Origin: a virus
IMG/VR virus record: IMGVR_UViG_3300034069_002176
DNA: 56,094 nucleotides
Direction: 5' to 3' (one strand)
Shown: one piece after another, positions 12,518 to 53,660 of the stretch
Position numbering within the stretch: position 1 is the stretch's first letter
How the letters are laid out: the number at the start of each line of letters is the position of its first letter
The notes under the pieces: generated by a model
Database searches by the model: none
Seen by the model: only the letters and a program-made list of their open reading frames with translations
Told to the model about the DNA's origin: nothing
Made by a program: the position numbers and the translations under genes

Positions 12518-13261
12518 TCAGTCGAAGATTTCGGTGTATTCGATACGGGAGTTCATGTCTTCGATGAAATCACCAATGGTTCCCTCGGAACGAAGCTGAC
12601 CACGGAATCGACCGCAGCCGCATTGTGCATCACACTGAACACCCTGGTAGTCATTGTTACCCGCGAAGGTATCCGCGAACTCGGACCACTCATCTTCTTT
12701 GACGCTGGTGACTTCGGCAATGTAGCAACGATTCAAGTGCTTGGACATGTCGTTATCAACCCATCCGTAGATGCTGTCACCGGGAAGCTTCGGCTTGCCT
12801 TTTTCCGCGACCATATTCGCCAACTTGATTTTGTAACGGTCAGCCCACGGTAGTGATTCGTCTTCATCATCGAGTTCAAGGTAGTTCACGCCGTCAGTGG
12901 GAAGAAACTCGGTGTGTCCTTCCTTGGCGCGATTGACAACCCAGGTCCATGACTGCTTCGTGTAGCCGAGACCATTTGCCTGACGGAACGTAGCCTCGAC
13001 CGTTTCATCGACATCAAGAACTGCCGGAGTGCTCACAATGAGACGTACTGAGCTATCAAGTAGCTTGGCATTTTCAGGTTTTGCGAGGCTGGTATTGCCG
13101 TTGGTGAGCAATGCTCTGACTTTTGCGGACGATTCTGCATCGGCGGCGTTAAGGGGAGATGGAACGCTGCGGGCTCCAGCGGCAGAAGAATCCGCCTTCT
13201 TGAGAACTGTCGTCTGCTTACCGTTCTTGTCGGTAATGGGGGTGGGGATGAGGTTGGACAT
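12518..13261 (-). CDS. DKNGK-tag family protein (unknown cargo domain, C-terminal Cys cluster)
   Basis: Starts MSNLIPTPITDKNGKQTTVLKK; RBS AAGAAGG; CDAQCGCG near the C-terminus. Confidence 0.8.
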   Translation of the reverse strand: MSNLIPTPITDKNGKQTTVLKKADSSAAGARSVPSPLNAADAESSAKVRALLTNGNTSLAKPENAKLLDSSVRLIVSTPAVLDVDETVEATFRQANGLGYTKQSWTWVVNRAKEGHTEFLPTDGVNYLELDDEDESLPWADRYKIKLANMVAEKGKPKLPGDSIYGWVDNDMSKHLNRCYIAEVTSVKEDEWSEFADTFAGNNDYQGVQCDAQCGCGRFRGQLRSEGTIGDFIEDMNSRIEYTEIFD

Positions 13262-13286
13262 CGTGAGTACCTTCTTTGTCATACAC

Positions 13287-13310
13287 AGTGTATCCCTAAC
13301 CGCCGATACT
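13287..13310 (-). promoter_or_regulatory. Non-canonical promoter AGTATCG-N11-TACACT
   Basis: Same architecture as the sites upstream of other DKNGK-tag genes. Confidence 0.6.
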
Positions 13311-13369
13311 TGCCACGGCTTGACAACGGTGCTAGATTACCCAGCGAGTACAACAACGAAAGCGTGAAA

Positions 13370-13879
13370 ATGAGCGAGAAGAAGACCGAAACGGTAATCA
13401 AACCGGTCGATGAGCCGATGGTGACTTCAACGCTGTCGAAGCGTCTGTATGGAAGCGCCGCCATCATCGCATTTGTTGGCGCTTTCGAAGCAAGCAACTG
13501 GGGTGTTGCCACCTCGATATTCGTCTTCTTGGGTGCTGCTTTCTTCGTTGCGGCGGGTATCTACAATTCCCAGAAGCTCGCTAAGCGCAACAAGGTTATT
13601 ATCGATTCCAATACTGCCGCATTGAATGCGTGGACCTATGGAGTATTCGCAGAGAGCGTACGCGGTAAGGTTGGTAACAAGGTGAACCTTACTGATGAGG
13701 ATATTAAGAACGTTGCTGACGGAAACCCCGTCTCATACATGTCGGGCAAGGATCGCTACACGGTTCGCCTGAGTGAAGAAACGAATGAAATCACCGTCAG
13801 GAAGAAGGCGGTCTTTACACAGAGCACTACGAGCAAGCTTCCTGAAAAGACGAATTACACAAGACCGCCCACTTTTTAG
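13370..13879 (+). CDS. Membrane protein (2 TM)
   Basis: Likely start MSEKKTE; two hydrophobic segments. Confidence 0.7.
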   Translation: MSEKKTETVIKPVDEPMVTSTLSKRLYGSAAIIAFVGAFEASNWGVATSIFVFLGAAFFVAAGIYNSQKLAKRNKVIIDSNTAALNAWTYGVFAESVRGKVGNKVNLTDEDIKNVADGNPVSYMSGKDRYTVRLSEETNEITVRKKAVFTQSTTSKLPEKTNYTRPPTF

Positions 13880-14577
13880 CGCAGACCATTCTCCGACTGG
13901 TAAGCGGACAGCGCTTCCTCGAACTTGCGCGGATTCCGATACACCTTGTCTTTCTTCGCTGACTTCTCTAAGGCAGGAAGACCTATTTCTGCATCCATGA
14001 CGTAGCAGAACGCCCCTTGAACAAGGTAGCGGTGCGCAGGGTCGATAGCCGTTCTACTTACTCCTTCGTAGAGGTGGTAGGCGAATGCACTTGCCTTGTC
14101 ATCTTCGGCTTTCAGAGCCGCGATGAGAATACCTTCGAGGATTTCCGCAAGCCTGGCGTTGAAATCATTCTGGTCCGCCTGGGTGGCTACCTGATAGTGC
14201 AATGCGTAATCGATGCCATCGGTGTCTGTCCTCCAGTCATCGAAAACTGCCGATAGCTCCGGCGCTATCTCGCTGAGTAGATGAATCCACATATCACCCG
14301 CAATTTGGAGGTACTGACCTTCTTCGACAAGGACGTACTCGCTGCTGGTGAGACGGTTGAAGTAGCGTTCTCCACGTTCGAGCTTCTTGGCTCGATCCGC
14401 TACCCAGTTGCGGGGAGTCACTCGCCAGATGTCATCGTTTTCGAATGACTGCACCAAAGGGACCACGGCTGATTCGTAGAAATCATCGTTGCGTCCAGTA
14501 AGGTTGCCTTCGAAACCCACCAGAATGAACTTACTTCCTGTGAGTGGTGCTTCTTCTATCTTCTTAGCCATTCGCAT
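13876..14577 (-). CDS. Hypothetical protein
   Basis: 233-aa ORF, leaderless-type start. Confidence 0.7.
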   Translation of the reverse strand: MRMAKKIEEAPLTGSKFILVGFEGNLTGRNDDFYESAVVPLVQSFENDDIWRVTPRNWVADRAKKLERGERYFNRLTSSEYVLVEEGQYLQIAGDMWIHLLSEIAPELSAVFDDWRTDTDGIDYALHYQVATQADQNDFNARLAEILEGILIAALKAEDDKASAFAYHLYEGVSRTAIDPAHRYLVQGAFCYVMDAEIGLPALEKSAKKDKVYRNPRKFEEALSAYQSENGLR

Positions 14578-14620
14578 AGCCTACCCAGTCAAAAGTAATC
14601 AGGGTACAAAACCAGAATGG

Positions 14621-15139: not shown

Positions 15140-15310
15140 GTGGTGTGTCCTAGTTTCAAGTGGTGCCGCATCGTAGCAACTGGGTTTCGAATTGTCCAAT
15201 ACGGCGTGAGATATTTCCCGTTTTGGGGACATATGGCATTGGGAAACCGCTTGTTTCCGGGATGTATCCTGATAGCCTGTACCAGTTCTCGACCTTGAAA
15301 GGGTTCTCAC

Positions 15311-17464: not shown

Positions 17465-18316
17465 CTAGCGAATCCATGTATCGCGTTCGCCGGTAGCGAT
17501 AAATGCAATGCGCTGAGAATCCTGCATGGTGAGACCGCCATTAGATTCACCACGGAGGATCATTTCTCCGGTGAGTCCGTTGATGGGGAAGTCGATGTTG
17601 GATGCAATGAATTCGCCTTCGGGGGAGTTGAAGCGTGTGACGTTACCCATGCGGTTGACAGTGAACTCACGGAAGCCGCCATCATCGGTCTTGTCATAAC
17701 GGAAAGTAGTGGAACCGTTGGGGAGTTCCTGTTCGATGTCAGGCTCGCCATAGATTTCTTTGGCTGCGTCAACAGATGCTTCCCATGTGCGAGTGACGCG
17801 ATGTGAAAGGAAAGTCGGCTTATCGAAGACGCCTGCGGTGGTGAGGTGCTTGAAGATGTTGGACTTTTGGAAGCGTAGCTCAATTACCCCGGTCTCGTAA
17901 TATTCGGTGTCTTCTGCGTCACGATCATCTAACGGAGTGTTCTCAAACGCAGTCAGTTCGGCTTCAAGGTCTTCGATGTGACTTTGTGCTGATAGTGCGT
18001 GTTCGTAGACGACCTCGGTTTGCTTTGCTGCTGTGTTGTTCCAAAGGAGGGCATTGGCTGCTCCGCCTACGGATTCGGAGTTGCGAAGTTCACGGGTCTT
18101 CTTGATACTGTCAGCAGCCCTTCCGAGAGCACTTACATCGTCCCAGAGGTTGTCCATCGCATCGGACATGGCATCGCTTTGTGGAATGAAGCTGGCGGGT
18201 TCGGGAGCTGCGGCTGATGCGATACGTTCGACAGCATTGAAACCTTTGTCGTCGGAGCGCCAGACGTGGGTCTGCTTGCCGTTCTTGTCTACGATGGGTA
18301 CTCGATTGGTGGACAT
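17465..18316 (-). CDS. DKNGK-tag family protein (unknown cargo)
   Basis: Starts MSTNRVPIVDKNGKQTHVWRS; RBS AAGGAAAGG. Confidence 0.8.
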   Translation of the reverse strand: MSTNRVPIVDKNGKQTHVWRSDDKGFNAVERIASAAAPEPASFIPQSDAMSDAMDNLWDDVSALGRAADSIKKTRELRNSESVGGAANALLWNNTAAKQTEVVYEHALSAQSHIEDLEAELTAFENTPLDDRDAEDTEYYETGVIELRFQKSNIFKHLTTAGVFDKPTFLSHRVTRTWEASVDAAKEIYGEPDIEQELPNGSTTFRYDKTDDGGFREFTVNRMGNVTRFNSPEGEFIASNIDFPINGLTGEMILRGESNGGLTMQDSQRIAFIATGERDTWIR

Positions 18317-18339: not shown

Positions 18340-18362
18340 AGTGTAGCGCCGTGGGGAGACAT
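18340..18362 (-). promoter_or_regulatory. Non-canonical promoter ATGTCT-N11-TACACT
   Basis: Variant of the GTCG-N11-TACANT motif, upstream of a DKNGK gene. Confidence 0.5.
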
Positions 18363-18449: not shown

Positions 18450-18926
18450 ATGAATCCCATCGCTCAGTTCGCGCACGACGCGCTCGTCGGTGCCTACGGC
18501 AGCATCAGCACCGACCACAACATCATCCCTCAGGTCATCACGCTGGTTGTCTTCGGATTCATTGCCAAGGTCATCCACGGCTTCACCGTCAACATGGCTC
18601 GCGACCGTCGTCGTCAGCGCCAGGTCAGCTACGGTCGTATCTACACCAACGAGCAGAAGGACGAAGGTCATGCTCGTGCCGGTCGTCAGTGCGAGTTCTC
18701 AGTCGGTCTTCGTCGATGCCCTCAGCAGTCCGCTCATGCCGACCACTTCTACCCGTTCTCTCGTGGTGGCGCTACCTCGATGAAGAACTTCGTCGCTGCT
18801 TGTGAGTTCCACAACCTCTCCAAGGGCGCGAAGATGCCCTCCGCTTCGGAGAAGGCGACCATCGAGAACCGTCGCCGTCGCTATTTCCCCTCTGGTGTCA
18901 GCACCGAGGTCGGTGAGTGGGCGTGA
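18450..18926 (+). CDS. HNH endonuclease with N-terminal TM helix
   Basis: CEF...C...HADHFYPFSRGGATSMKNFVAACEFHNLSKG; AAGGAGG RBS. Confidence 0.85.
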   Translation: MNPIAQFAHDALVGAYGSISTDHNIIPQVITLVVFGFIAKVIHGFTVNMARDRRRQRQVSYGRIYTNEQKDEGHARAGRQCEFSVGLRRCPQQSAHADHFYPFSRGGATSMKNFVAACEFHNLSKGAKMPSASEKATIENRRRRYFPSGVSTEVGEWA

Positions 18927-20170: not shown

Positions 20171-21100
20171 GTGAACGAGAACCCACTTCAAGGGTATTTT
20201 CCTCGCACTGGCGACATGATTACATCACTGCGCAAAGAAGCAGCGATGCATGGTGTGTCCGCCAAGTCTGCCATCAGTGATTTTCGGGAAGCACTTGGTG
20301 AGTTCTTCACCAGCCCCACGTACCAGAACCATCTTCGTCGAGTCATCAATCCTCGTGCCGGTCGTCCCGCCATCAACATAGACAATCGGTTACCGCAGCG
20401 GATGATGCGTGCGCCGCTTGCTTACGCGCTCGTCAAGAACCCTGAACCCATTTATGATGTCGTTGCATCGTGGAACGATGACCACCGAATTTCCCGGTAC
20501 AACAACGATTACGATTACGCTGGGATGCATGCAACCTATTTCAATGATCGTATCGGGTACGGCAGTATGGAGTACGCAGCACATCTCGATGTCGCTATGG
20601 CTTACGGTGCCATCGAGGGAAAGAACCTCAGCGCAGTTGTCCCAACCGGTGATGCTTCTCATCTCACCATGCCGCTCACGGCGTATGTCGGGCATCTTGA
20701 ACTAGATGCATCCGAACTCATCGACCTGGCAAGCATCTACTACAGGTGGGGTCTACATCTCGTAGAAACACAGCAGCCAAGGAACACTCGTCACATCGGC
20801 GTCAGTCTGGCATTCGAGAAGGCGACTTCATACAGCGGCTACCCTGATGCGGTTGCATACTGGTCCGGTAAGGTGCCGGTTGGTTCTGAACTCGCCTGGG
20901 AACTTGTTACGTTGCAGTGGCGGCGGGACACTCAGGAAGCGGTATGGCTGGATGCTGTCGAGCGGTCGCTTCAAAGTGGGGCTTCCGTGCAACGATTCAA
21001 TGACGTAGTATCAAGAAACATCCCTTTGGAGCAAGCACTTGCTATCGTAGAGAACTCCATCGACGACGAGATTATGTCCGCACTGAAAGGCGCGCTATGA
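20171..21100 (+). CDS. Hypothetical protein, shared C-terminal tail family
   Basis: Ends RNIPLEQALAIVENSIDDEIMSALKGAL. Confidence 0.8.
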   Translation: MNENPLQGYFPRTGDMITSLRKEAAMHGVSAKSAISDFREALGEFFTSPTYQNHLRRVINPRAGRPAINIDNRLPQRMMRAPLAYALVKNPEPIYDVVASWNDDHRISRYNNDYDYAGMHATYFNDRIGYGSMEYAAHLDVAMAYGAIEGKNLSAVVPTGDASHLTMPLTAYVGHLELDASELIDLASIYYRWGLHLVETQQPRNTRHIGVSLAFEKATSYSGYPDAVAYWSGKVPVGSELAWELVTLQWRRDTQEAVWLDAVERSLQSGASVQRFNDVVSRNIPLEQALAIVENSIDDEIMSALKGAL

Positions 21101-23754: not shown

Positions 23755-24105
23755 TCAGCCTCCTAAGACCGTGACAAATAGCAACACACCGAATCCTCCT
23801 AGAAGGAAATGTCCAGCACCGCCAATTCCAAAGAGTGCTAATCCGATGCGCCAGAATAGCTGACTTTCCGATCTACGTCCAGCTTGGGTGTTGAAGGCAA
23901 GACCGAAGATGAAAAGAAGCATTTCGATAAGACCTAGACCGAATGTGAGTAACAATGTGGAGCCTGGAACGATGCCTGAGAATTCGAATATGGCACCCAC
24001 TACCACTATGACGAGACCCAGGGCTGCATAGAGAATTCCACCCGCAGTTGTGCGCTTAGCTGTATGCGCTAGGTTGGCTGTAATGATTTCTGTGTTATCT
24101 GTCAT
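23755..24105 (-). CDS. Small membrane protein (3 TM), tandem array member
   Basis: Three hydrophobic helices; FWRIGLAL. Confidence 0.7.
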   Translation of the reverse strand: MTDNTEIITANLAHTAKRTTAGGILYAALGLVIVVVGAIFEFSGIVPGSTLLLTFGLGLIEMLLFIFGLAFNTQAGRRSESQLFWRIGLALFGIGGAGHFLLGGFGVLLFVTVLGG

Positions 24106-24114
24106 GAGTTCCTG

Positions 24115-24618
24115 TCAGAATCCGAATCCACTACTGAGGTAGGACAATACCACCAAACCAATTCCGAAGATGGCTTGAATAGCCATAAGTCCCGAGAATA
24201 TGAGACCAGTAATCCAGAATCCCAGCGGGGTACGCTCCTTAATGACTTTGCGCATCTGGATAATTCCATAGACGGTCGTGATGATGCCTGCGATGTAGGC
24301 TCCGAAGGAGATTATCGCAGAGATGACTTGTGGAACAACTGACGAAGAAACCGGTGCGGTTGGCGAGTAAGTCAATAATGGAATCAGCACCAAGATCATC
24401 GAAAGAACGGGCGCGAAAAACACAACTAGCGAAATGACGAAGTACCTGACCGCCCTTCTGTCGCTTCTGAGCAAGAAGCTCTGGGGCATTACCGGTTTAG
24501 GCGCAATGGGGTTTGCGTACCCCGGAGGGAGACTTTGAGGTACAGGTGCACTCGGTTCTGGCTCATTCTGGAATCCGTCATAGCCGAACTGGGGCGGGGT
24601 TTCTTCGTTGTTGATCAT
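24115..24618 (-). CDS. Small membrane protein (3 TM), tandem array member
   Basis: Pro-rich N-terminus; YFVISL...AYIAG...GIIQMRK...FWITGLIFS. Confidence 0.75.
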   Translation of the reverse strand: MINNEETPPQFGYDGFQNEPEPSAPVPQSLPPGYANPIAPKPVMPQSFLLRSDRRAVRYFVISLVVFFAPVLSMILVLIPLLTYSPTAPVSSSVVPQVISAIISFGAYIAGIITTVYGIIQMRKVIKERTPLGFWITGLIFSGLMAIQAIFGIGLVVLSYLSSGFGF

Positions 24619-25055
24619 TAGCCGCCGTTGTATCCCCGAAGACCAACGAATACCAAGATGAGTGCAACAACTCCGAATACAAGCTGCACGGTCAAGATTG
24701 ATGAGCAGATGATACCGGCAACCCAGAACGGTGTACCGAGCTTGTTCTTCGCTGCTCGGCGCAATTGCACGATACCTGTAATAAGAAGAGGTGCACCCGC
24801 GATGTAGGCGATAGCCGTGACGGCGAATATCGCAGGTGTTGTGTGATTCGGACTAATCGCAAACGCGGCGAAAATGGAGACCGGGGCAAAAAACAATGCG
24901 CCAATGCTGACTACGAAATACCAAACCGACCCTTTGGTAATGGTACGCACTTGCTGTTGGTCCGTCTGCGGATACGCAGGCACGGTGGGTGCTGCCGGAG
25001 CGGCGTAACCCTCGGGAAGGGGTGCTGGCTGAGGTACATCTTCAATGTTGGACAT
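24618..25055 (-). CDS. Small membrane protein (3 TM), tandem array member
   Basis: Likely start MSNIED; YFVVSI...AYIAG...GIVQLRR...FWVAGIICS. Confidence 0.75.
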   Translation of the reverse strand: MSNIEDVPQPAPLPEGYAAPAAPTVPAYPQTDQQQVRTITKGSVWYFVVSIGALFFAPVSIFAAFAISPNHTTPAIFAVTAIAYIAGAPLLITGIVQLRRAAKNKLGTPFWVAGIICSSILTVQLVFGVVALILVFVGLRGYNGG

Positions 25056-25071
25056 GGCTACTTTCGTTTGA

Positions 25072-25434
25072 CTACGAGTTTTCAATGACGCGAACGAGAA
25101 TGAACACAAAGAGAGTGATAAGAACACTGAAGAGCAGGTATACCCCGGAGATGACTATTCCGGGCACAATGAATCCAATTCGTTCGTTGCGGTTGTTCGC
25201 CCTACCAAGCAGAACGATTCCGATGGCAACCATCGCGGCTGCGACGGCGATGGTACCTCCGAGTCGAATGGTGTCTAAGATCGCAGATGACGGAAGGAAC
25301 CGCAGAGTGGCAACGAGTAGAGGTACGGCGATTGATGCGATGAAGTAGATAATCCCGCTTCTCGAAATAGACTTCTGTTCTTCTGGCTGGTTACTCGTGG
25401 GATACGGTACCGGCTGCTGAGGTGCGTCACTCAT
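25072..25434 (-). CDS. Small membrane protein (3 TM), tandem array member
   Basis: AAGGAG RBS; YFIASI...GIVLLGR...FIVPGIVIS. Confidence 0.7.
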   Translation of the reverse strand: MSDAPQQPVPYPTSNQPEEQKSISRSGIIYFIASIAVPLLVATLRFLPSSAILDTIRLGGTIAVAAAMVAIGIVLLGRANNRNERIGFIVPGIVISGVYLLFSVLITLFVFILVRVIENS

Positions 25435-25658: not shown

Positions 25659-26735
25659 TTGAGTATTGTCACCGAAAAGCCCCAAACCCAACCCCGTGCG
25701 CTGAGTACCTATGCCAGCCTCTCGAAGCTCATCAAGGAAGCCAATCTCCTTGATCGTAACGTCGCCTTCTACATCCGCCGATTCATTCAAGTATCTCTTC
25801 TAGCGCTTATGGCGTGGGGTGCGGTGCTTCTGATGCGTGAAACGGCGCTTGTTCTTCTTATCGCTCCCGTGCTCGGTATTCTCGGTGCACAGTACGGCTT
25901 CTTGGCTCACGAACTCAGCCACAAGCAGGTCTTCAACTCACCGAAGTTGAACAAGTGGTTTGCGCTATTCACCGCCAACTTACTAGTCGGTCTATCTATT
26001 GGTTGGTGGGATAAGAAGAAGCACAATCTTCACCATGCGAACCCGAATACCGAAGACAAAGACCCTGACATCAAGATCCCCATATTTGCATTCACCAAAG
26101 AAGACTACGACAGCAAAACCGGTGTCGAGAAGATGCTGACGAAATACCAGGGGTACTTGTTCCCCTTCCTTCTTCTGTTCACCGGGTTCGACCTCTTGAA
26201 GAATTCGGTCCAGACACTTCTCACGCCGTCCTTTAAGGCTGACCACCGGTTCCTCGAACTGTTCCTTATCATCTTCCGTACGGTCGCTCCTGCGGTCTTC
26301 TTGTTCATGTTGCTGAGCCCTTGGGTTGCGGGCGGGTTCATTTTGATTCAAATGGGCGTATTCGGTTTGTTCATGGGCGGTGCGTTTGCTCCCAATCACA
26401 AGGGTATGCCAATCATTCCTCGTGGGCAGAAGGTGGATTACTTCAACCGTCAGGTTCTTACGTCACGAGACATCAAGCCGAACTGGCTAATCGATAACCT
26501 CATGGGTGGTTTGAACTATCAAGTTGAGCACCACTTGTTCCCGAGTATGGCTCGCCCTAACCTCCGCAAGGCTCAGAAAATCGTCAAGGAATTCTGCGCA
26601 ACTCACAACGTGCCTTACGCCGAGACGGGTTTGTTCCGTTCCTATGGAATCGTGATGCAGTATCTGAACAAGGTGGGTTTGAAGCACAGCGACCCATTCT
26701 TGTGCCCGTTGGTTAGCCAACTCCGACAGGTATAG
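25659..26735 (+). CDS. Acyl-CoA / fatty-acid desaturase (membrane di-iron)
   Basis: His boxes HELSH, HNLHH and QVEHHLFP; several TM segments. Confidence 0.92.
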   Translation: MSIVTEKPQTQPRALSTYASLSKLIKEANLLDRNVAFYIRRFIQVSLLALMAWGAVLLMRETALVLLIAPVLGILGAQYGFLAHELSHKQVFNSPKLNKWFALFTANLLVGLSIGWWDKKKHNLHHANPNTEDKDPDIKIPIFAFTKEDYDSKTGVEKMLTKYQGYLFPFLLLFTGFDLLKNSVQTLLTPSFKADHRFLELFLIIFRTVAPAVFLFMLLSPWVAGGFILIQMGVFGLFMGGAFAPNHKGMPIIPRGQKVDYFNRQVLTSRDIKPNWLIDNLMGGLNYQVEHHLFPSMARPNLRKAQKIVKEFCATHNVPYAETGLFRSYGIVMQYLNKVGLKHSDPFLCPLVSQLRQV

Positions 26736-30061: not shown

Positions 30062-30523
30062 ATGAGCAACACAGTTCGCACACCCATCGTGGACAAGAAC
30101 GGCAAGCCTACTCACGTCAACAAGAAGGCTGATGCTCATGCCACCAGTTCTCGTGTGGCTGCTGTTTCTCCGACCGTTTCGGCATATGAAGAGCCGGTCA
30201 CTTTGCGTCCCAGCGGTCTCACGTATGAAGAAATCGTGGCTCAGTTCTCCGACTTCGTTCCTACGCATAAATGGAAGCGCGACATCGAGCATAAGACCAA
30301 CGATGGCGTTATCTCGTTGCTGAACTACACTCGCAAGGAAGGTATCTCTACGGATACTCCGATTGCGCCCTCAGGGAAGACTTTCACAGAACTCCGTAGT
30401 CACTTCGATGGTCTTCACTTTGCCAAGGAAATGCTTTCCAACGACGAGCGAACCATGCTGACGTGGGCGGAGTCGCTCATTCACAAGATTGATTCCGAGG
30501 CTCCTGGCGGATACGCTCACTAG
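30062..30523 (+). CDS. DKNGK-tag family protein (unknown cargo)
   Basis: Starts MSNTVRTPIVDKNGKPTHVNKK; GGAG RBS. Confidence 0.8.
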   Translation: MSNTVRTPIVDKNGKPTHVNKKADAHATSSRVAAVSPTVSAYEEPVTLRPSGLTYEEIVAQFSDFVPTHKWKRDIEHKTNDGVISLLNYTRKEGISTDTPIAPSGKTFTELRSHFDGLHFAKEMLSNDERTMLTWAESLIHKIDSEAPGGYAH

Positions 30524-31425
30524 CTCAGCTTGGCAACAGCTACTGATAGTTCGTGCTCATAGCGAGGCTCGAACTCGATAACCTCTCCGGGGAAGTAGTT
30601 TCGCCAATCCGTGCGAAGTCCTGCACCGACGAACGAACCTGCAATACAAGCGATGGAGTCCGAGTCACCGCCTGTACGAACGGCACGGTGAAGTGCCTGG
30701 TTCGGGTTCTCGTAGACATCGAAGATCTTGGCAGGGAGAGCTAGTGCTTCGTCAGCAACCCAACCTTCTCCGATGTAGCTGCATGGGTCGTCGAAGTGGT
30801 TCGTAACAATAGAGTCAGGGGTGTTTTTCGCTTTGGCGAGGGCTTCGACAACCTCGTTGTTATCCGCGAAGTCGAGTAGATATTCAACAAGCTGTCCTCG
30901 GAAGACCTCGTGGTTGGCGATAGCCCAAACTGCGCGGGCAGTGAGCGCGCTTGCTTCTAAGGCGGCGGGGTGTCCGTGCGTGATCTTGGCTTGGTCCGAG
31001 GCAAGCTGGGTGATGTCTTCGATAGGACGGTCGAGCAGACCGAGCCATCCGGCGCGCATGTTGGCTCCGCAACCTTTTGATATGGTGATGGTACCGGTGA
31101 ACGGGTTACCGATTTCGCGGGATGCCGCGAAGTGACTGAGGGCGTTCATACAGGTGTTTCCTGGCGCACGATTGTTGTCTGGGTCGTCCATCCACCGGAG
31201 GAAGATATCTCCAATGGAGAGTAGCTCGGCAGTGGAGCCGGGGTCGTTGGGCATGAGCCCTTGTACGACGGCGAGCGCCATTTGTGTGTCGTCTGATACG
31301 ACAACGGGAGACGGAATGGATACGTCTCGGGGAATCTGGTCGAAGCGCTTGAATTCTGTCTTGTATCCCCAGCCGTCTCCGAGTGCCGAGAGGTAAAGTG
31401 TGTTGCTGACTGTTTGCGTATCCAT
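30520..31425 (-). CDS. ADP-ribosylglycohydrolase (ARH/DraG family)
   Basis: ALGDGWG, VSDDTQMAL, GCGANMR, ITHGHP and GGDSDSIACIAG motifs. Confidence 0.92.
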   Translation of the reverse strand: MDTQTVSNTLYLSALGDGWGYKTEFKRFDQIPRDVSIPSPVVVSDDTQMALAVVQGLMPNDPGSTAELLSIGDIFLRWMDDPDNNRAPGNTCMNALSHFAASREIGNPFTGTITISKGCGANMRAGWLGLLDRPIEDITQLASDQAKITHGHPAALEASALTARAVWAIANHEVFRGQLVEYLLDFADNNEVVEALAKAKNTPDSIVTNHFDDPCSYIGEGWVADEALALPAKIFDVYENPNQALHRAVRTGGDSDSIACIAGSFVGAGLRTDWRNYFPGEVIEFEPRYEHELSVAVAKLS

Positions 31426-34030: not shown

Positions 34031-34065
34031 GAGTGTCGGGATGTTCGGCTACAATGGAGATAACC
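34031..34065 (+). promoter_or_regulatory. Non-canonical promoter GAGTGTCG-N11-TACAAT-GGAGATAACC
   Basis: Flanking boxes identical to 38613-38647; heads the three-gene DKNGK cluster. Confidence 0.7.
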
Positions 34066-34088: not shown

Positions 34089-34790
34089 ATGGCTGCAAGC
34101 AATAACACTGCCCCGAAGTACATCACCGACAAGAACGGTAAAATCACTACCGTTCACGCCCTTACCGAACCCAAGAACTCGAAATCGAACTCTCGTGTTC
34201 AGGCGCTGGGAAGACGGAGTACAACTACTCGCGATGATGGAACCGAGCGTAAGAGCCTTTTCCTCTCATCTACCGAAACCGCCAAACTCATCCGCGAGAC
34301 TCTCAAGGAGCAGTTCTCTGCTGAGTACCCCGACACCAAGTTCTCCGTACGTTCGTCTAGCTACTCCGGTGGTGCGTCTATCAACGTCTCCTACACCGAT
34401 GGTCCTTCTGATAAAGAGGTCAAGGAAGTAGTTGGCGGGTATGCAGGCTCGACATTCAATGGCATGATCGACCTCAAAGAGTACAAGTCTTCCAAGGCTG
34501 AGGATGGCACCGAGGTACACTACGGCTCCGACTACGTTTTCGTGCGTCGTGAAATCTCCGACAACAAGCGCGAGGACTACATGAAAGAACTCGCTGGCAT
34601 GCTCGGTGTTTCCGAAGTAGACCCAAACCGTCTGTACGAAACCCCTTCCGAAATCTACATGATGCGTGACAAGTACCGCGACCAGATTGGTAACCGTAGC
34701 ATTCGCTACGAAACCTACGCCAGCGAACTCGTCGAGGTAATCGCCATCGCTCGTGGCAAGGAAGAGCGTCAGGCGGCTCGCCATGAGTGA
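34089..34790 (+). CDS. DKNGK-tag protein carrying an LPD29-like (large polyvalent protein-associated) domain
   Basis: YITDKNGKITTVH tag; ETAKLIRETLKEQF...KFSVRSSSYSGGASINVSYTDGP...FNGMIDLKEY matches the LPD29 pattern as I recall it. Confidence 0.8.
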   Translation: MAASNNTAPKYITDKNGKITTVHALTEPKNSKSNSRVQALGRRSTTTRDDGTERKSLFLSSTETAKLIRETLKEQFSAEYPDTKFSVRSSSYSGGASINVSYTDGPSDKEVKEVVGGYAGSTFNGMIDLKEYKSSKAEDGTEVHYGSDYVFVRREISDNKREDYMKELAGMLGVSEVDPNRLYETPSEIYMMRDKYRDQIGNRSIRYETYASELVEVIAIARGKEERQAARHE

Positions 34791-35544
34791 CTCCAACCTC
34801 GTCAAAGTTCCCATCGTGGACAAGAACGGTAAGTCCACTACCGTACACAAGCGTGATGCCGACGCCGATAAGGGTAAGTCTCGTATCGGATCTGTCGGTG
34901 CGCCGAAAAGCAATCAGTCTGACAATAGTGAACTCGCCGCCGAGATCGATACCGAGATTTCCAAGGTGCAATCACAGTTGGACGTTATTAGTGCGAAGAT
35001 AAAGGCGTTGCAGGATGAAGCCAATCCTCTCGTAGAGCAGCGTAGTGAACTTATTGACATGAAGATGGAAGCCGAAGCGGGTAAGATTACTACCGACTCT
35101 CCCATCGAAGACATTCAAGCGTTGAACGATTTGGCATTCAGTCATTCAAGTGCCGCCAAGAACGAAAAAGAATGGGTGCGAGCTATCAACCCTCGTTTCA
35201 GGACCAGTTCGTACGACCAGGATAACCGTGTTCCGATTTTGCAGATGGACTTCGCTTACGAAGAGGCTATTACCGATGATTTGGTAGAAGATATTTCTAC
35301 CTTCTTGAACACGGTTGCAAACGGTCGTGACGAAGTGAGCTTTGAGCTTCTCAATATCGATGAGGACTCGCATTCTGTTGCGGTGAATCTTACCGATGGT
35401 ACGGCGACAGTGACACGTTACGGTCGTACTTACTGGAAGTTCGGAGACAATCCGAAGCCGCTTAAGAAGACTTTGGAGTGGGTCACAAAGAATCTACCGT
35501 TCACCGTTCCTGAGGGATCTTCATACCACCCTGACGATTACTGA
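34783..35544 (+). CDS. DKNGK-tag family protein (coiled coil plus unknown domain)
   Basis: Starts MSDSNLVKVPIVDKNGKSTTVHKR; overlaps the upstream stop. Confidence 0.8.
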   Translation: MSDSNLVKVPIVDKNGKSTTVHKRDADADKGKSRIGSVGAPKSNQSDNSELAAEIDTEISKVQSQLDVISAKIKALQDEANPLVEQRSELIDMKMEAEAGKITTDSPIEDIQALNDLAFSHSSAAKNEKEWVRAINPRFRTSSYDQDNRVPILQMDFAYEEAITDDLVEDISTFLNTVANGRDEVSFELLNIDEDSHSVAVNLTDGTATVTRYGRTYWKFGDNPKPLKKTLEWVTKNLPFTVPEGSSYHPDDY

Positions 35545-35581
35545 GCGCTAAGCATTACTTCCTAGAACAAAAAGGTTCGTA

Positions 35582-36370
35582 ATGGGCAACAACACTGTTC
35601 TTACGCCCGTTGTGGACAAGAACGGCAAGCAGACTCATGTCTGGAAAAATGCCGTCACGTTGGCAAAGGACAGAGTTCCTGGCGGACCACCTCCTGTTAA
35701 GCACAGTCCCACCGATGAAGCTTTCTTCGAGAAGATGCGTATGAAGCATGACATGGTTGTGTTCAATGGCAAGGAGTGGGCGCTTGGACCCGAAGGTATG
35801 TCTGGGGCATATTGCTTTCAATGCGATGGGTACTTCAGTAAGGAACTCATTCATACGTCGGGCATCGCAGCATTTGAATGCTCTCATTGTGGCGCTGGTG
35901 CTCTCGAAGGACTGACGGGTGTGGCTATCGCTTATGACTCGCAGAAATTCCTTGATGAAGAGACGACTTTGACAAGCACATGGTTCCACTCGACCGTCAA
36001 TCCAAATTGGGATACGGAACTTCAGGCGTATCAAGGTGAAGACACTCCGATGGTGCATCTCGGCACAATGGAAGCGGCAACTGTCCGTATGAACGACCTT
36101 CAACTGGAGAATTCTCATAGTAGCGAGACGCCACTTAAGTTCTACATTTACGAGGTGAAGTTGCTACCCACCATGAGCCTTTCGAGCGCGCTTGCGGATG
36201 ACAATAACGAACTCGCTCCCGAGACTGTTGCTGATTGGCGTAGAGACCAATTCGAAGAATACGACCTGTTTGGTGCCACTCGTTACGTGAACATGTATGA
36301 AGCAGCCGGTTCGATCAGCTTACTAGCCAACCCGCATCATTTCGAAGTTGTGAATCGGGTAGAAGTCTAG
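35582..36370 (+). CDS. DKNGK-tag protein with a Zn-ribbon and a possible ADP-ribosyltransferase-like domain
   Basis: TPVVDKNGKQTHVWKN tag; CFQC/CSHC; WFHST...VHLGT...A...FYIYEV...YVNMYE pattern (tentative ART fold). Confidence 0.75.
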   Translation: MGNNTVLTPVVDKNGKQTHVWKNAVTLAKDRVPGGPPPVKHSPTDEAFFEKMRMKHDMVVFNGKEWALGPEGMSGAYCFQCDGYFSKELIHTSGIAAFECSHCGAGALEGLTGVAIAYDSQKFLDEETTLTSTWFHSTVNPNWDTELQAYQGEDTPMVHLGTMEAATVRMNDLQLENSHSSETPLKFYIYEVKLLPTMSLSSALADDNNELAPETVADWRRDQFEEYDLFGATRYVNMYEAAGSISLLANPHHFEVVNRVEV

Positions 36371-36430: not shown

Positions 36431-36883
36431 ATGACGAAATTCATCAAAGGCTTCAAGAACGATTACCGCTTCCTGTCCAACTTCACGTACACAACGGTGG
36501 AGTACGAAGGCACGAAGTACCCGACTATTGAGCATGCTTTTCAAGCAGCTAAATTCGACGACCTGGACTACCGTGAAGTTATCGCTGATGCAGAGACTCC
36601 TGGTGATGCCAAAGTGCTCGGTAAGACGCGTGAGCACCCGCTACGTGAAGGATGGAATGAAGGTCTCGCCGTACAGGTAATGGCAGGATTGGTTGCTCAG
36701 AAGTTTAGCAAGGGCGGGTACCGTGACAGATTGCTTGCTACTGGCGATGCCATTCTTGTGGAGACAAATCATTGGGGTGATGACATCTGGGGAGATTCAA
36801 CAACAACCGATGAGCCGGGTCGAAATCAACTCGGAATCATCTTGATGTCCGTTCGAGCCGGTTTGCAAGCCGCGACGCGCTAA
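36431..36883 (+). CDS. NADAR (YbiA-like) family protein
   Basis: FLSNF, YPTIEHAFQAAK, KF, LLATGDAILVE, DDIWG and GRNQLGIILM motifs. Confidence 0.92.
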   Translation: MTKFIKGFKNDYRFLSNFTYTTVEYEGTKYPTIEHAFQAAKFDDLDYREVIADAETPGDAKVLGKTREHPLREGWNEGLAVQVMAGLVAQKFSKGGYRDRLLATGDAILVETNHWGDDIWGDSTTTDEPGRNQLGIILMSVRAGLQAATR

Positions 36884-38612: not shown

Positions 38613-38647
38613 GAGTGTCGCCCCTAAGCTCTACAATGGAGATAACC
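38613..38647 (+). promoter_or_regulatory. Non-canonical promoter GAGTGTCG-N11-TACAAT-GGAGATAACC
   Basis: Matches 34031-34065. Confidence 0.7.
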
Positions 38648-38660: not shown

Positions 38661-39644
38661 ATGGCTGGCAAGGTCAAGACGCCTATCATCGATAAAAATG
38701 GTAAGCAGACGCAGGTATGGAAGAACACTGATACCAATGAGGGTCCGGTCCGTTCTGGGGTCGTACCTATCGCGAAGGCTGCAACCAAATACAGCCAGCA
38801 TGAAGTTCTTGCTCGTCCTCCCATCGTGCTTGGTGAAGATGAGCAGTACGATTTCACCAGCGATGAAGACGGCATCTCTTGGGATGGTGACATCACGCGC
38901 GCCAACATCTACCGTACGGAAGACGAGGATGGCGAGTCTGTATACGTCGCAACGGGTTATGGCGTTGACATCGATGCCAAACGTTGGCTTGCGGGCAACC
39001 ACTTCGATATCACCGACGAGCAAGAAGCGTACGATTTCGTTCAAAAATATTCTGGTCTCATCGACACCTTCTTCCAACGCGAATACGATATTGACGAAAT
39101 GGAGTGGTCGGATGACTTAATTGCTTCGCCGGTATGGACCTTAGAGTCTCCCGAACCGATGTCACCTGACACAGCAATCGATCATTGGGACACCTCGGAC
39201 GCAACTCGCATTTATAACGAGAGCGACCCCGGAACTTTCGGTTCTAGAGATCTTTGGCGAGCGCTTGCTGACGAGATTCGAGCCACAGAGGAAGTCAAGG
39301 ACTATTCCGAGCAGGACATCGCGGAAGCGCTCGAAAGCTCTTATGGTCTAGGCAAAGAAAACGAACTACGAGCTATCGTTGCTAGTGGTCGTCTCAGCGG
39401 TAGCACCGGTCGGCGAATTGTCGAACAGCGTCAGTTGGTCAGTAACCCCAGCGCACCTTGGGACGCAATCAGCGAGGTTGCTAGTTCCACCAATGATGAG
39501 TCGGTTCAACTTATGGCTATCGAGACCGGTAAGCTTCCAGAGGGAGCTTTGGCATCACTGCGTGAGCGGACCATTCACCCCTCCGTCCGTGACGGCATCG
39601 ACGAGATTATCGGTCATAACATCCTCGAAGGATTCGGAGCCTAA
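38661..39644 (+). CDS. DKNGK-tag family protein (very acidic cargo, helical C-terminus)
   Basis: Starts MAGKVKTPIIDKNGKQTQVWKN; AAGGAG RBS. Confidence 0.8.
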   Translation: MAGKVKTPIIDKNGKQTQVWKNTDTNEGPVRSGVVPIAKAATKYSQHEVLARPPIVLGEDEQYDFTSDEDGISWDGDITRANIYRTEDEDGESVYVATGYGVDIDAKRWLAGNHFDITDEQEAYDFVQKYSGLIDTFFQREYDIDEMEWSDDLIASPVWTLESPEPMSPDTAIDHWDTSDATRIYNESDPGTFGSRDLWRALADEIRATEEVKDYSEQDIAEALESSYGLGKENELRAIVASGRLSGSTGRRIVEQRQLVSNPSAPWDAISEVASSTNDESVQLMAIETGKLPEGALASLRERTIHPSVRDGIDEIIGHNILEGFGA

Positions 39645-41058: not shown

Positions 41059-41949
41059 ATGTACAACCCTCGACAGTGGGACTTTCTCACTGAGCAGAAG
41101 TCAATGCTGAGGCGGAATCCGATCTATATCAAAAACCGCACCAAGGTCGGGTTCCCCTCGCATTCTTTTGTGCGCCACGAGCTAGAAACACTTGGGCGTC
41201 CCGATGCGTTTGAATCTTACGCACAGTCAACAATCGGTCGTGGCACTCGACTTACGGGCGGTCATCATTATGGAGTCAACCGCGCACTTGATGGTTCGGT
41301 TGCTCTCACTGCCGTCTCCGTGGCTCAGGGTTGGCTTTTCAATGCAGACTTCTGGGTTGCTGGATTTGGTTCCACGTACTACCCTAATATTCATAGGAAG
41401 CAATTCCTGACATTCGGACACTATCCATTCGATAGCACCGATTCTTACTTCAATAACGCGGCACATCTGTGGGGTTCTCACGCAGATGGAACGGTACCCG
41501 ATTCGGTCAAAGATTCCATCCGCGTAACTTTCATGTCCCGACTCGGAAAGACAAAGTTCGAGCAGTGGAACAAATGCGTTATGCGCGCCAACTTATCTCC
41601 GGCTGATGTTGTCGATGGCACTCTTCTTGTTCCGATGCACGCTGGTGCATACGAGCAGGACTTCATGCCGTTGACCGAAATCGTACTGGGAGCCGAGAAG
41701 ATTTCCGCTATCGAATTCGATAAGGCTGACTTCGCGGCATGGATGTTCTTCTGCACGCAGGCTACAGCGGGTAAGGCTCTTGACGCGGTCACCCTTACCC
41801 GATTGATTGCTGAGTCCGCAGCGCATGGTCACAAGCCGACAACACTCTGGGAGCAGTTCTCGCTCGGTGTTCCTGTCCAGACTTTGTTGACTGCGGTCAG
41901 CAACGACATCGACTTTCAACTGGCTGACTTTCTTTCACAAGCGGTCTAG
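41059..41949 (+). CDS. Hypothetical protein, shared C-terminal tail family
   Basis: Ends LGVPVQTLLTAVSNDIDFQLADFLSQAV. Confidence 0.8.
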   Translation: MYNPRQWDFLTEQKSMLRRNPIYIKNRTKVGFPSHSFVRHELETLGRPDAFESYAQSTIGRGTRLTGGHHYGVNRALDGSVALTAVSVAQGWLFNADFWVAGFGSTYYPNIHRKQFLTFGHYPFDSTDSYFNNAAHLWGSHADGTVPDSVKDSIRVTFMSRLGKTKFEQWNKCVMRANLSPADVVDGTLLVPMHAGAYEQDFMPLTEIVLGAEKISAIEFDKADFAAWMFFCTQATAGKALDAVTLTRLIAESAAHGHKPTTLWEQFSLGVPVQTLLTAVSNDIDFQLADFLSQAV

Positions 41950-49780: not shown

Positions 49781-49793
49781 AACTACTTAACGA

Positions 49794-50840: not shown

Positions 50841-53126
50841 ATGAGTATCAACAAGGATATCTTGTTCCGTCGTCGCGGCGCTATCGTCGCACCCGTCCGC
50901 GAGGTTTTGTCTGCGAAGGCAGCCAAGGTCATCACCGAAGCCGACGCGCCTTATCTGGTCGTTACGGCTTCTCAGAACCTCAGTGCGCTCGGATACCGTT
51001 TCTCGGAGGACTTGTTCAAGTCTGCTCTGAACTCCAAGCTCAGCAATGATGAACTCGCTGCGTACCTGAGCGAGACGATTCAGTTCATCCGTAAGGCTAT
51101 TGGCGCTCAGCGCAAGTACAAGCCTGCCTACCCGAACTTCCCGACCCAGGTCATCGAGGCTAGCGAGTTCGAGTTGTACTTCAATGCCGTCCTGCACTAC
51201 TGGGGTATGGATTACCCGGACTACAAGATAAAGAATCGCAAGCCTTTGGACGAGGCAGCATTCAACGATCTTACCGAGCTTCGTGTCATCGGTGTTACCA
51301 AGCGCGGTCTGTCCTACAAGGCGGCTGTCTCTGAGTTCAACACCATCTTCACGAGCCTTCTGTCGATGCAGTCATCGTGGGGTGAGTCGGAGATCGCTGA
51401 TGCAGGATGGTTCGTCAACGCCCTCTCTGCTTCCGACTTTGACAAGCTGGTTCCTGATTCCATTCCGAACAAGGAAAACCTTGCCGCGCTCATCACTTCG
51501 GTGAAGTCTGCTGGAAAGACCGAACTGTTCGAGATCCTGCTGTCGCGTCTTGCGACTGCCACGGATGTTCTCCGTGTCGCCGTTGGTCTTTCCGATGGCG
51601 ATGCTGCACTGTCCGGTGTGGGTGTCGAGAAGACCCGTTTTGTCAGCCAGCCTAAGTCGGTTCGTCGTCTGCTGGTACACCGTCTGGAGACCATCTCTGG
51701 TGGTGACTCGGATCGGCTAATCGAGGACATGCTTCGTAACCGTGCGTTGTGGAAGCTGCTTGCTCACTCGTTGCACGTTGGTGACTTCGCTAAGTCGGCA
51801 CCGACCGTCCTGAGCGCTGTTTCGGTTGTTCGCGCCAATGGCAAGAACAAGGATGGTTCGCACTACGAGACTTTCGGTACTAAGGTAGAGGCGCTTATTT
51901 CTGCCGCCGAGAAGACCGTATCGGCTAACAAGCGCACCAAGGCGGCTGCGGCGAATGTCGCTACCGTTAATGAGTTGGTAGCGCTGTTGAAGACTCGTCC
52001 TGGTGTATTCGCGCGCCGTTTGGACAAGGTTCTTCGTTCGTCCATCGACAAGAACATTGTTCTGGACGCATTCGATATCGTCGCACCTTCGGTAGCTACT
52101 CCTGTTCTGTGGCAGCTTATGAACTTCTACTCCAACCGTGCATTCGTTGCCGGTAAGTCTCCGAAGATGAGCCGTACCTTCATCCCGAAGGGTCGCGCTT
52201 CGAAGATGATGGAGGCGAAGAATGTTCTTCCCGAGTTGGACTCTGTTCTGGTCGAGGGAATCGTTGAGCGTATCGGTTCGGCGCTGTCTGCCGTCTATCG
52301 CAAGCGTGACGCCATCGGTAAGGTCTTTGTTGCCGATGAATTGAAGACCTACACCGTGCCTTTCGGTGCTCGTTCGGCTTCCAAGGCGTTGAACCCTGTT
52401 GGTCGTGGTACTCGTGCTTACATCGACGATTCCGCCGATATCATTCGGTTCTTCGTCTGGTGGACCGATGGCGCTTCCCGTACCGATCTCGACTTGTCGG
52501 CTGTTTTCCTCGATGAGGACTTCAAGGTGTCTGGTCAGATCGCGTACTACAACCTTAAGGGCGATGGTGCTGTTCACTCCGGTGACATCACTTCCGCTCC
52601 GAACGGTGCATCTGAGTTCATCGACGTGAACCGCAAGAAGTTGCTGGCTCAGGGTCGTCGTTACATCGGTATGGTCGTCACGTCCTACACCGGTCAGAGC
52701 TTCGATACGCTACCCGAGGTCTTCGCTGGTGTCATGGAGCGTCAGGGTAAGGGTAAGAAGGGTGAGGTTTACGAGCCTCGCACCGTTCACAACGCCTTCG
52801 ACATCACCGCTCCGGGCAAGATCGCCATGCCCCTGATCATCGATTTAGAGAACAACTCATTCATTTGGGCTGACCTCGCTATCAACTCGCAGGACATGTA
52901 CGCGGTCAACGTCGCCAACAACGAAGGCGCGCTCAGCCGTTCCATCCGTGGTCTGGTCGAGTCGAACTTCGTTTCACTGCACGATGTATTCACTGCCAAT
53001 GCCGCTCGCGGTGAGTTGGTAGCAAACCGTGACGATGCTGATGTTGTTATCGACATCAGCCGTGGTCGTGTCATGGTCAACGGAGAGGTTATCGGAACCG
53101 ACCGTATCCTTTCCGAGTGGATCTAA
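50841..53126 (+). CDS. ROT/TROVE-like helical-repeat protein with a C-terminal TerD domain (Prok-RING_4-type architecture without the RING)
   Basis: P.YPNFP.QV, IPNKEN, TATDVLR.A..LSDGD, RPGVFARRLD, P.GRG, RTDLDLSA and HSGDITSAPNGASEFID (TerD) motifs; GAGG RBS. Confidence 0.8.
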   Translation: MSINKDILFRRRGAIVAPVREVLSAKAAKVITEADAPYLVVTASQNLSALGYRFSEDLFKSALNSKLSNDELAAYLSETIQFIRKAIGAQRKYKPAYPNFPTQVIEASEFELYFNAVLHYWGMDYPDYKIKNRKPLDEAAFNDLTELRVIGVTKRGLSYKAAVSEFNTIFTSLLSMQSSWGESEIADAGWFVNALSASDFDKLVPDSIPNKENLAALITSVKSAGKTELFEILLSRLATATDVLRVAVGLSDGDAALSGVGVEKTRFVSQPKSVRRLLVHRLETISGGDSDRLIEDMLRNRALWKLLAHSLHVGDFAKSAPTVLSAVSVVRANGKNKDGSHYETFGTKVEALISAAEKTVSANKRTKAAAANVATVNELVALLKTRPGVFARRLDKVLRSSIDKNIVLDAFDIVAPSVATPVLWQLMNFYSNRAFVAGKSPKMSRTFIPKGRASKMMEAKNVLPELDSVLVEGIVERIGSALSAVYRKRDAIGKVFVADELKTYTVPFGARSASKALNPVGRGTRAYIDDSADIIRFFVWWTDGASRTDLDLSAVFLDEDFKVSGQIAYYNLKGDGAVHSGDITSAPNGASEFIDVNRKKLLAQGRRYIGMVVTSYTGQSFDTLPEVFAGVMERQGKGKKGEVYEPRTVHNAFDITAPGKIAMPLIIDLENNSFIWADLAINSQDMYAVNVANNEGALSRSIRGLVESNFVSLHDVFTANAARGELVANRDDADVVIDISRGRVMVNGEVIGTDRILSEWI

Positions 53127-53137
53127 CCGGTCCATCT

Positions 53138-53173
53138 AAATAGGGTGTATAGCTCCGGCTATACACCCTATTT
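53138..53173. terminator. Perfect 16-bp inverted repeat, bidirectional terminator
   Basis: AAATAGGGTGTATAGC-TCCG-GCTATACACCCTATTT. Confidence 0.85.
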
Positions 53174-53177
53174 GCGT

Positions 53178-53660
53178 TTAGTCGTCAGCCAGTCTCAGCA
53201 TGGTCTCGGATACGGCATAGTCTTTATTTCGACCCGAGTTGGCAACGAATCCAAATCTTTGGTAGAACTTCACGAGTCGAGCCTTACTACTGCCGAAATC
53301 TGCCGAGGGACTGAGGGCGATATTCCAACCGTTCGAATCCGCTTCGTCAATTATTTCCTGCATTACTTTCGTGGCAATACCCTGACCACGCATACTCTCG
53401 GGTATCGATATCAACGATAAGGTGGCGAAGTCACTGAAGCTGCTACCACTGAGATGCAATGTGATTCCCGGATAGCGCTCTTTGACTTCCGCTGCGAAAT
53501 TAGAGGCTTCTTCGATGGAGCGCTCTGTGCGGACCGCTGAGGCTGCGGAGACTATTGGCGGGGCAGCGCGACCATATGAAGAAGCTGGCGCGTCTGAGCG
53601 CTTATGACGGTGTGAGGCGATGCCGTTTTTGTCCACTATCGCTGTGCGTACAGTAGTCAT
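53178..53660 (-). CDS. DKNG-tag protein carrying a GNAT acetyltransferase domain
   Basis: Starts MTTVRTAIVDKNGIASHRHKR; IPESMRGQGIAT, RLVKFYQRFGFV. Confidence 0.85.
   Translation of the reverse strand: MTTVRTAIVDKNGIASHRHKRSDAPASSYGRAAPPIVSAASAVRTERSIEEASNFAAEVKERYPGITLHLSGSSFSDFATLSLISIPESMRGQGIATKVMQEIIDEADSNGWNIALSPSADFGSSKARLVKFYQRFGFVANSGRNKDYAVSETMLRLADD

Follow-up and report, generated by a model that had tools for sequence, protein, structure and literature searches.

A modular N-terminal tag, probably an address label, on unrelated proteins of a giant uncultured mobile element

It was found that eight otherwise unrelated proteins encoded in the stretch of DNA analysed here (IMG/VR record IMGVR_UViG_3300034069_002176; 56,094 nucleotides, hereafter the window) begin with the same short peptide, recognisable by the motif DKNGK. 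The window comes from a plant metagenome, is part of an uncultured mobile element of 654 kb, and has about 87 open reading frames (ORFs) at a GC content of 51%. The verdict of this analysis is that the peptide is a real, undescribed, modular address tag. Its most economical function is most likely that of an address label read by one receptor.

The tag and the proteins that carry it

A preliminary description of the window, made from its letters alone, had listed eight dispersed genes on both strands with a DKNGK N-terminus. All eight were recovered at their coordinates and confirmed with a profile. The six-frame translation contains DKNG nine times; in eight cases it sits 10-14 residues past the start codon of a long ORF, and the ninth (14990, plus strand) falls inside a short frame that is non-coding. 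A profile made from 16 tags matched the same eight ORFs in the window and nothing further at 10 bits or more. Long same-strand blocks were not found in the strand layout of the window. The tagged genes, with the bit scores of their tags against the profile, are as follows.

12518-13261, minus strand: 247 aa, body of no known family; tag at about 13133-13261, 54 bits
17465-18316, minus strand: 283 aa, body of no known family; tag at about 18188-18316, 53 bits
30062-30523, plus strand: 153 aa, body of no known family; tag at 30062-30190, 57 bits
34089-34790, plus strand: LPD29 body, first of a three-gene tagged run; 44.5 bits
34783-35544, plus strand: 253 aa, body of no known family; 50.5 bits
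35582-36370, plus strand: four-Cys ribbon and ART-fold body; 55.5 bits
38661-39644, plus strand: 327 aa, isoelectric point (pI) 4.3, body of no known family; 53.7 bits
53178-53660, minus strand: GNAT body, variant tag subtype DKNGI..HRHKR; 51 bits

Pfam upheld the two family assignments proposed earlier, LPD29 for the 34089 protein (residues 60-156, E 1.1e-21) and GNAT for the 53660 protein (E 2.6e-7), and gave no family for the other six. When about the first 43 residues were removed, all pairwise BLASTP comparisons of the eight bodies gave E > 0.9. Since the bodies have no pairwise similarity, the eight proteins are not paralogues, and full-length paralogy, which the preliminary description had named as one of the ways in which its proposal could fail, is refuted. 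The codons of the tag vary synonymously (GAT AAA AAT GGT at 38661 and GAC AAG AAC GGC elsewhere) and the DNA upstream of the eight genes does not align. Thus, the conservation acts on the peptide.

The consensus of 148 aligned N-termini is M-S-N-x-x-P-T-P-I-V-D-K-N-G-K-x-T-T-V-H-K-K, in which D, N, and G are invariant. The beta-hairpin suggested earlier is predicted by AlphaFold2 on the tag alignment (a construct of 55 residues), with strands at residues 4-10 and 16-22 (pLDDT 87-96), one hydrophobic face, and coil after the hairpin (pLDDT 52-77). The R-[VIA] noticed before in the linker is real and position-locked: among 150 tagged proteins, 67 have the motif R-h-x-x-h-x(1-3)-P at 19-22 residues past the tag Asp, compared with 12 in shuffled sequences and none of 148 control windows. 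The tag is bipartite and about 40 residues long, consisting of a basic beta-hairpin and, at a fixed distance, the R-h-x-x-h-x(1-3)-P motif, followed by an Ala/Ser/Pro linker. Its net charge is about +4, and the linker is nearly neutral. Two subtypes exist in one genome, DKNGK.TTVHKK and DKNGV/I..T/S.R.H/N.K.K/R, and the GNAT gene of the window belongs to the second. The earlier remark that no family had been described for the tag holds: no Pfam family covers tag residues 1-45, the best match in a PDB sequence search had E 0.12, and a search of the ESM Atlas gave no usable match. No account of this tag or lineage was found in the literature, and the tag itself is previously undescribed.

Is the tag found beyond the window? 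The preliminary description had held that a profile would find many more matches and that these would be N-terminal, as turned out to be the case. Against 1.84 billion representative proteins, the tag profile matched 480 clusters at E<=1e-3, and the tag starts within residues 1-17 in all of the 150 top matches. Ten clusters whose members were looked up are all metagenomic, with contigs of up to 805 kb and 637 kb. A degenerate DNA pattern retrieved 108 stretches (694 kb) from JGI metagenomes, and all 209 profile matches on them are N-terminal. The tag Asp lies 9-15 residues past the Met in 189 of the 191 JGI matches with an ATG start; the remaining 18 matches have a GTG or TTG start or a variant turn residue, or are cut by the end of the locus.

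In IMG/VR, the degenerate tag pattern matched 64 stretches, only six of which are true tags. All six come from one 202.7-kb record labelled 'provirus' (hereafter G001), which has 13 tagged genes. The other matches were rejected as unrelated internal hairpins. The same kind of scan in GTDB genomes, with at least 120 matches, gave no host clue, all 120 listed being unrelated internal motifs of at most 22 bits; this result has no bearing on whether the tag is absent there. No DNA near-identical to the window was found in the phage collection, and an IMG/VR scan with an MmeI-like protein gave no match. The best explanation is that uncultured giant mobile elements of one clade, 0.5-0.8 Mb in size, bear the tag on a large, fast-changing set of proteins.

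The tag is retained by orthologues in L002, a related contig, among them those of 34089, 34783, and 38661. Across four pairs of orthologues, the hairpin (65-88% identity) is better conserved than the body (43-61%) or the linker (29-59%); the hairpin identity is 76% for 34783, whose body is 43% identical, and 88% for 38661. On the other hand, body relatives exist without the tag, namely P0003 and plasmid LPD29 proteins, whose match begins only at residue 58. Since orthologues retain the tag and relatives of the bodies lack it, the tag is modular, as had been proposed from the window. The protein P0011 (770 aa, on a JGI contig of 4.2 kb) has two additional degenerate internal copies of the tag. 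Its internal hairpin copies, ..IVDANGRVTHVNRK.. and ..IVDVNGKLTTVHKK.., lie between repeat and coiled-coil segments. P0011 looks like a fusion of three tagged modules, that is, a polyvalent-like chain.

No Pfam family was found in 145 of the 150 tagged proteins examined; the other five gave GmrSD_N, SprT-like, Tox-PLDMTX, LRV_2, and DUF5710. There is one body per tag, with a median length of 233 aa, the only two-domain body being that of a tagged ArdC-like protein of G001 with ArdcN (E 2.6e-10) and MPTase-PolyVal (E 6e-5). In the 35582 protein, four Cys are invariant, as are positions with H, Y, and E. Its AlphaFold2 model (pLDDT 70) retrieved almost exclusively ART folds among the top 50 Foldseek rows, including RES, MbcT, ParT, pertussis S1, PARPs, DarT1, and Tpt1. 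The 'possible ART' of the preliminary description thus gains from the invariant residues and the rows of ART fold, but the best E value is only 7.5e-3, and membership of the modelled body in the ART superfamily has weak fold-level support.

Taken together, the tagged proteins have the look of passengers: soluble, acidic, and Cys-poor. In comparison with background ORFs, which contain some spurious ones, none of 150 tagged proteins has a membrane-like segment against 67 of 236 (p 8e-17), the median pI of the bodies is 4.67 against 5.58, acidic proteins make up 95% against 56%, and the Cys content is 0.32% against 1.0%. The few recognisable bodies (LPD29, ArdC-like with ArdC-N and MPTase-PolyVal, SprT-like, GmrSD_N, DUF5710, ART fold, and GNAT) share the vocabulary of polyvalent proteins, which fits the earlier picture of a polyvalent protein split into separately tagged modules. 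Furthermore, three of the eight tagged genes of the window adjoin untagged genes for ADP-ribose erasers.

30520-31425, minus strand: ADP-ribosylglycohydrolase (ARH), untagged; converges on the tagged 30062 gene
about 36431-36883, plus strand: NADAR, untagged; comes after the tagged ART-fold gene 35582-36370
53912-54379, plus strand: Macro domain (E 8.4e-12), untagged; divergent from the tagged 53660 GNAT gene

The NADAR gene next to the ART-fold gene resembles one half of a toxin-antidote pair. On the reading preferred here, the eraser neighbours form a layout in which the toxin leaves and the antidote stays. The character of the bodies points to action on entry into a new cell, because they include an ArdC-like protein, LPD29, and toxin folds that have untagged antidotes beside them, and because membrane segments are absent and Cys residues few.

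The tagged genes also have a promoter class in common. Five sites in the window of the form [GA]TC[GT]-N11-TAC[AT][AC]T serve seven of the eight tagged genes.

34035-34055, plus strand: promoter-like GTCG-N11-TACAAT ahead of the tagged run 34089-36370
38617-38637, plus strand: promoter-like GTCG-N11-TACAAT ahead of 38661
53685-53705, minus strand: promoter-like GTCG-N11-TACTAT ahead of 53660
18340-18360, minus strand: promoter-like GTCT-N11-TACACT ahead of 18316
13287-13307, minus strand: promoter-like ATCG-N11-TACACT ahead of 13261

Many untagged genes are instead preceded by TTGACA-N17-TAnnnT. In the window, G001, L093, and L002, GTC[GA]-N11-12-TAnnnT stands upstream of 10 of 25 tagged genes and 10 of 322 untagged genes (p 6.5e-8), and several of the latter 10 turn out to be tag variants. 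In the independent JGI loci the numbers are 59 of 188 and 29 of 556 (p 8e-19). The class often reads GTGTCG, its upstream box lies 5-6 nucleotides nearer the -10 box than a normal -35 box, and it shows an 8- to 20-fold enrichment in front of tagged genes (G001, L002, and the JGI loci included). Since they share a promoter class, the tagged genes look co-regulated. The pattern suggests that an element-encoded sigma factor or activator may read this class.

Transport genes of the element

It is very probable that G001 belongs to the 654-kb contig from which the window comes. P0193 and the T2SSE ATPase of G001 are 100% identical, and both P0193 and a protein of the window lie on 654,127-bp contigs. 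The tetranucleotide usage of the window correlates with that of G001 (r = 0.93). The two have no DNA in common and therefore would be different parts of the genome. If so, the label 'provirus' would mean only that the G001 part of the element was called viral. The only well-conserved protein common to the two is a basic HNH-type protein of 158 aa, found at 18450-18926 (plus strand) of the window and at 59383-59922 of G001 with 57% identity; it is probably a repeated homing-type endonuclease.

G001 has genes for Pol III alpha, clamp loader, helicases, SbcC, topoisomerase II, NAD-dependent ligase, RNR, ThyX, and RtcB, together with a type I-E CRISPR-Cas system, in which a protein of 977 aa is Cas3. 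A cellular origin from a reduced genome was considered and rejected as unlikely, because no ribosomal protein, aminoacyl-tRNA synthetase, or RNA polymerase is among the 25 strongest of the 45 Pfam families found in 82 scanned proteins.

about 24.5-41, 142-162, and 177.6-180.7 kb of the G001 record (L082-L092): type IV filament set, VirB4-like module, FtsK-like translocase, and CRISPR-Cas regions

The type IV filament set comprises two T2SSE ATPases (E 1e-60 and 5e-30), T2SSF (E 1e-21), a weak Peptidase_A24 match, and pilin-like small ORFs with one N-terminal helix each. A VirB4-like AAA_10 ATPase (E 1.6e-12) is accompanied by a 755-aa NTPase, a two-helix protein, and a 1297-aa protein with 11 helices, and this module adjoins the clamp loader. 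A tblastn search with the 1297-aa membrane protein gave no match in phages. There is also an FtsK/SpoIIIE-like protein of 1030 aa with five N-terminal helices (E 2.2e-16).

Synteny of the VirB4-like module extends to a distant relative, L098, where the module is contiguous with the filament genes. This relative (L098/L222, ENA contig k141_97333, 75 kb) has a GC content of 47% and a VirB4-like protein of 53% identity; its VirB4-like module, clamp loader, and T2SSE-T2SSE-T2SSF-pilin-like genes form one continuous block on the same strand. The conserved arrangement suggests that the VirB4-like and filament genes make up a single composite apparatus conserved across the clade. Homologues of both modules occur on the 805-kb and 637-kb contigs that carry tagged genes. 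Two further VirB4-like homologues, P0168 and P0169, come from other samples and gave no link to the window.

Genes for a phage head were looked for as well. Terminase_6N, TerL_ATPase, Phage_capsid, Phage_portal, and Phage_sheath_1 had no match in the 203 kb of G001, and no structural family was listed in PHROGs and Pfam scans of the tested proteins of G001 and the window. The lone head-and-packaging row, a marginal match to a terminase large subunit (phrog_2666, E 1.2e-5), fell on the FtsK-like protein. In summary, the transport machinery in the DNA read is of the conjugation or pilus type only.

Possible destinations of the tagged proteins

The analysis established the tag itself, its modularity and N-terminal position, the properties of the bodies, and the shared promoter class, together with transfer-type genes on DNA that is very probably of the same genome. 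The best reading is effector delivery with DNA, for which a conjugation-type machine is likelier than a phage head. The tag would be a portable N-terminal docking module on soluble, acidic, single-domain effector proteins with anti-restriction-type, DNA- or protein-modifying, and toxin-type domains. It would pass all these effectors to a single receptor on the apparatus with which the element transfers its own DNA, and the conserved set of VirB4-like ATPase, type IV filament, and FtsK-like genes offers the candidates for that receptor. The effectors would exit the donor together with the DNA, and the newly entered cell would be the first place where they act; the untagged antidotes (NADAR, ARH, and Macro) would stay behind in the donor. 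I put forward such co-transfer through a conjugation-type apparatus tentatively, with clearly less than even confidence. A more far-reaching version, in which the tag is the export signal of an as yet undescribed route of protein delivery and the composite VirB4-like, type IV filament, and FtsK-like apparatus injects about a hundred tagged effectors ahead of or with the 0.65 Mb of DNA, is unlikely; if true, it would make conjugation a mass effector injector with a structured N-terminal signal.

Proteins that travel with DNA have precedents. For polyvalent proteins, entry into the target cell along with phage or plasmid DNA has been proposed (Iyer et al. 2017, PMC5512222), and ArdC and TraC1, and likewise the Sog proteins, are transferred during conjugation (PMC5512222). 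The tagged proteins resemble them in vocabulary (LPD29, ArdC-N, MPTase, SprT-like, ParB/GmrSD-type, and ART), in the proposed entry-phase role, and in having giant mobile elements as hosts. In contrast, polyvalent proteins have 2-15 domains per chain, whereas those described here are separate proteins of about 230 aa with a tag copy each, and the tag is not among the Pfam LPD families. The payload leaders of PVC/eCIS are N-terminal, 50-70 residues long, needed for loading, portable, and groupable by sequence, and they are read by the AAA ATPase Pvc15 (PMC11495950, PMC10097599). They are likewise portable N-terminal modules on unrelated effectors. However, PVC leaders are disordered and of low confidence in AlphaFold, in contrast to the hairpin predicted here at residues 4-22 (pLDDT 87-96); the cargo proteins per genome are far more numerous here, and Phage_sheath_1 has no match in G001.

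Several points weigh against delivery by a conjugation-type machine. The machine of a type IV secretion system (T4SS) has a VirB4 ATPase, a VirD4-type coupling protein, and a relaxase. The VirD4 family (T4SS-DNA_transf) had no match in G001, where the VirB4-like AAA_10 ATPase and the FtsK/SpoIIIE-like protein are present. No relaxase is among the families listed, and no search aimed at relaxases was made. The presence of AAA_10 and FtsK-like ATPases does not by itself prove conjugation. The known signals of T4SS substrates are charged C-terminal tails or BID- or XVIPCD-type domains; they are C-terminal or internal and not N-terminal, unlike the tag, which is N-terminal throughout. IMG/VR classes G001 as viral, and a capsid module may lie in the remainder of the 654-kb genome, over half of which is beyond the DNA read. 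The assignment of G001 itself comes from one identical protein, the matching 654,127-bp contigs, and the composition, and not from overlapping DNA. The background sets of the membrane, pI, and Cys comparisons include the spurious ORFs mentioned above. Finally, I infer both the binding of the tag to the transfer apparatus and any transfer of protein.

The preliminary description had proposed that the tag routes effectors into the virion, or to another compartment or export machine. For the virion, the element would be a huge phage whose scaffold or capsid interior binds the tag, and the effectors would be ejected with the DNA. The T4 internal proteins, which are processed by the prohead protease gp21, are the closest parallel. 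In T4, a capsid-targeting sequence (CTS), an N-terminal peptide of about 10 residues that is portable to foreign proteins, routes the internal proteins and Alt and also carries GFP into the core; Alt and IPI are injected (PMC9958956). Here, too, a short conserved N-terminal peptide stands on unrelated soluble effector-type proteins, much as T4's non-essential host-directed cargo enters the next cell with the DNA. The viral listing of G001, the part of the genome outside the DNA read, and a promoter class distinct from TTGACA-N17-TAnnnT, which could be a late class, would suit a virion as well. Nevertheless, the tag differs from the CTS in being bipartite, about 40 residues long, predicted to form a hairpin, and present on dozens or more proteins per genome. 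Capsid genes were not found in the DNA read (the five hallmark families in the 203 kb of G001), and the scans yielded no structural family apart from the marginal phrog_2666 row. The linker is not enriched in cleavage motifs at the level of sequence, [LI]xE (T4) occurring 0.41 times per 50 aa against 0.66 in the bodies and [SAG]xE (phiKZ-like) 0.77 against 0.82. Transfer-type secretion genes are present instead. Thus, the virion destination was left unsupported, and I regard it as rather improbable.

Would the tag need to leave the cell at all? A hairpin with one hydrophobic face, structured and not a disordered leader, could add a strand to one hub inside the element-holding cell, such as a replication or segregation factory, a compartment shell, a chaperone, or a membrane apparatus, and so concentrate accessory enzymes there. 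Two tag subtypes in one genome would suit two hubs, and the degenerate internal copies of P0011 imply that a free N-terminus is perhaps not strictly required. However, a simple binding handle does not need a near-absolute N-terminal position, docking does not require the absence of membrane segments, the low Cys content, or the low pI, and the effector and anti-restriction vocabulary suggests action in a newly entered cell. Docking without transfer is a doubtful alternative. It is very unlikely that the basic hairpin and its Arg motif serve to bind the element's DNA or an RNA. The charge of about +4 on otherwise acidic proteins would be in keeping with such binding, as would the several bodies whose targets are DNA or RNA (ArdC-N, GmrSD_N, and perhaps the ART-fold body). 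But no similarity to DNA- or RNA-binding families was seen in Pfam or PDB, a lone hairpin with three or four basic residues would be a weak binder, the linker is nearly neutral, and the strict N-terminal position would be left unexplained. The constant place at the start of the gene and the common promoter class are also what would be seen if the first 20 or so codons served translation initiation, solubility, or timed degradation, and the N-terminal signal of PVC payloads is known to influence stability too (PMC11495950). Yet the synonymous variation of the tag codons favours selection on the peptide and not on the mRNA, the confident fold and a second position-locked motif 20 residues on exceed what a leader needs, and P0011 has its copies internally. 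An expression or stability leader is thus most improbable.

Other genes of the window and the meaning of the tag

Some untagged genes of the window have features in common as well. A similar acidic amphipathic C-terminal tail, ..[ND]-[DS]-I-D-x-x-L-x-x-x-L-x-x-A.., ends the proteins of five untagged genes.

4768-5697, plus strand: acidic-tail protein, untagged
5840-6415, plus strand: acidic-tail protein, untagged
9108-10016, plus strand: acidic-tail protein, untagged
20171-21100, plus strand: acidic-tail protein, untagged
41059-41949, plus strand: acidic-tail protein, untagged

The tagged 38661-39644 protein has a look-alike C-terminus, ..DGIDEIIGHNILEGFGA. The acidic tail is perhaps another motif of the same element for addressing or partner binding, in this case a C-terminal one. 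At 23755-25434 (minus strand), four consecutive small ORFs (116-169 aa) with similar hydrophobic tails adjoin a fatty-acid desaturase gene (25659-26735); they may be a paralogous membrane-protein array.

Among known systems, the tag is best filed with N-terminal delivery or addressing tags on effector sets. It is a compact, portable, sequence-defined handle; fused to reporters, it could help to identify the machine by which it is read. If it is a delivery label, its clusters, at least 480 in number, would be a catalogue of what a giant mobile element sends ahead, and would offer a wealth of new anti-defence and host-takeover proteins. The tag suggests that, in giant elements, long polyvalent proteins give way to many small modules that are tagged separately. 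Even with an intracellular destination, a structured header on about one in ten to one in five of the proteins of a 654-kb element would be an undescribed organising principle.

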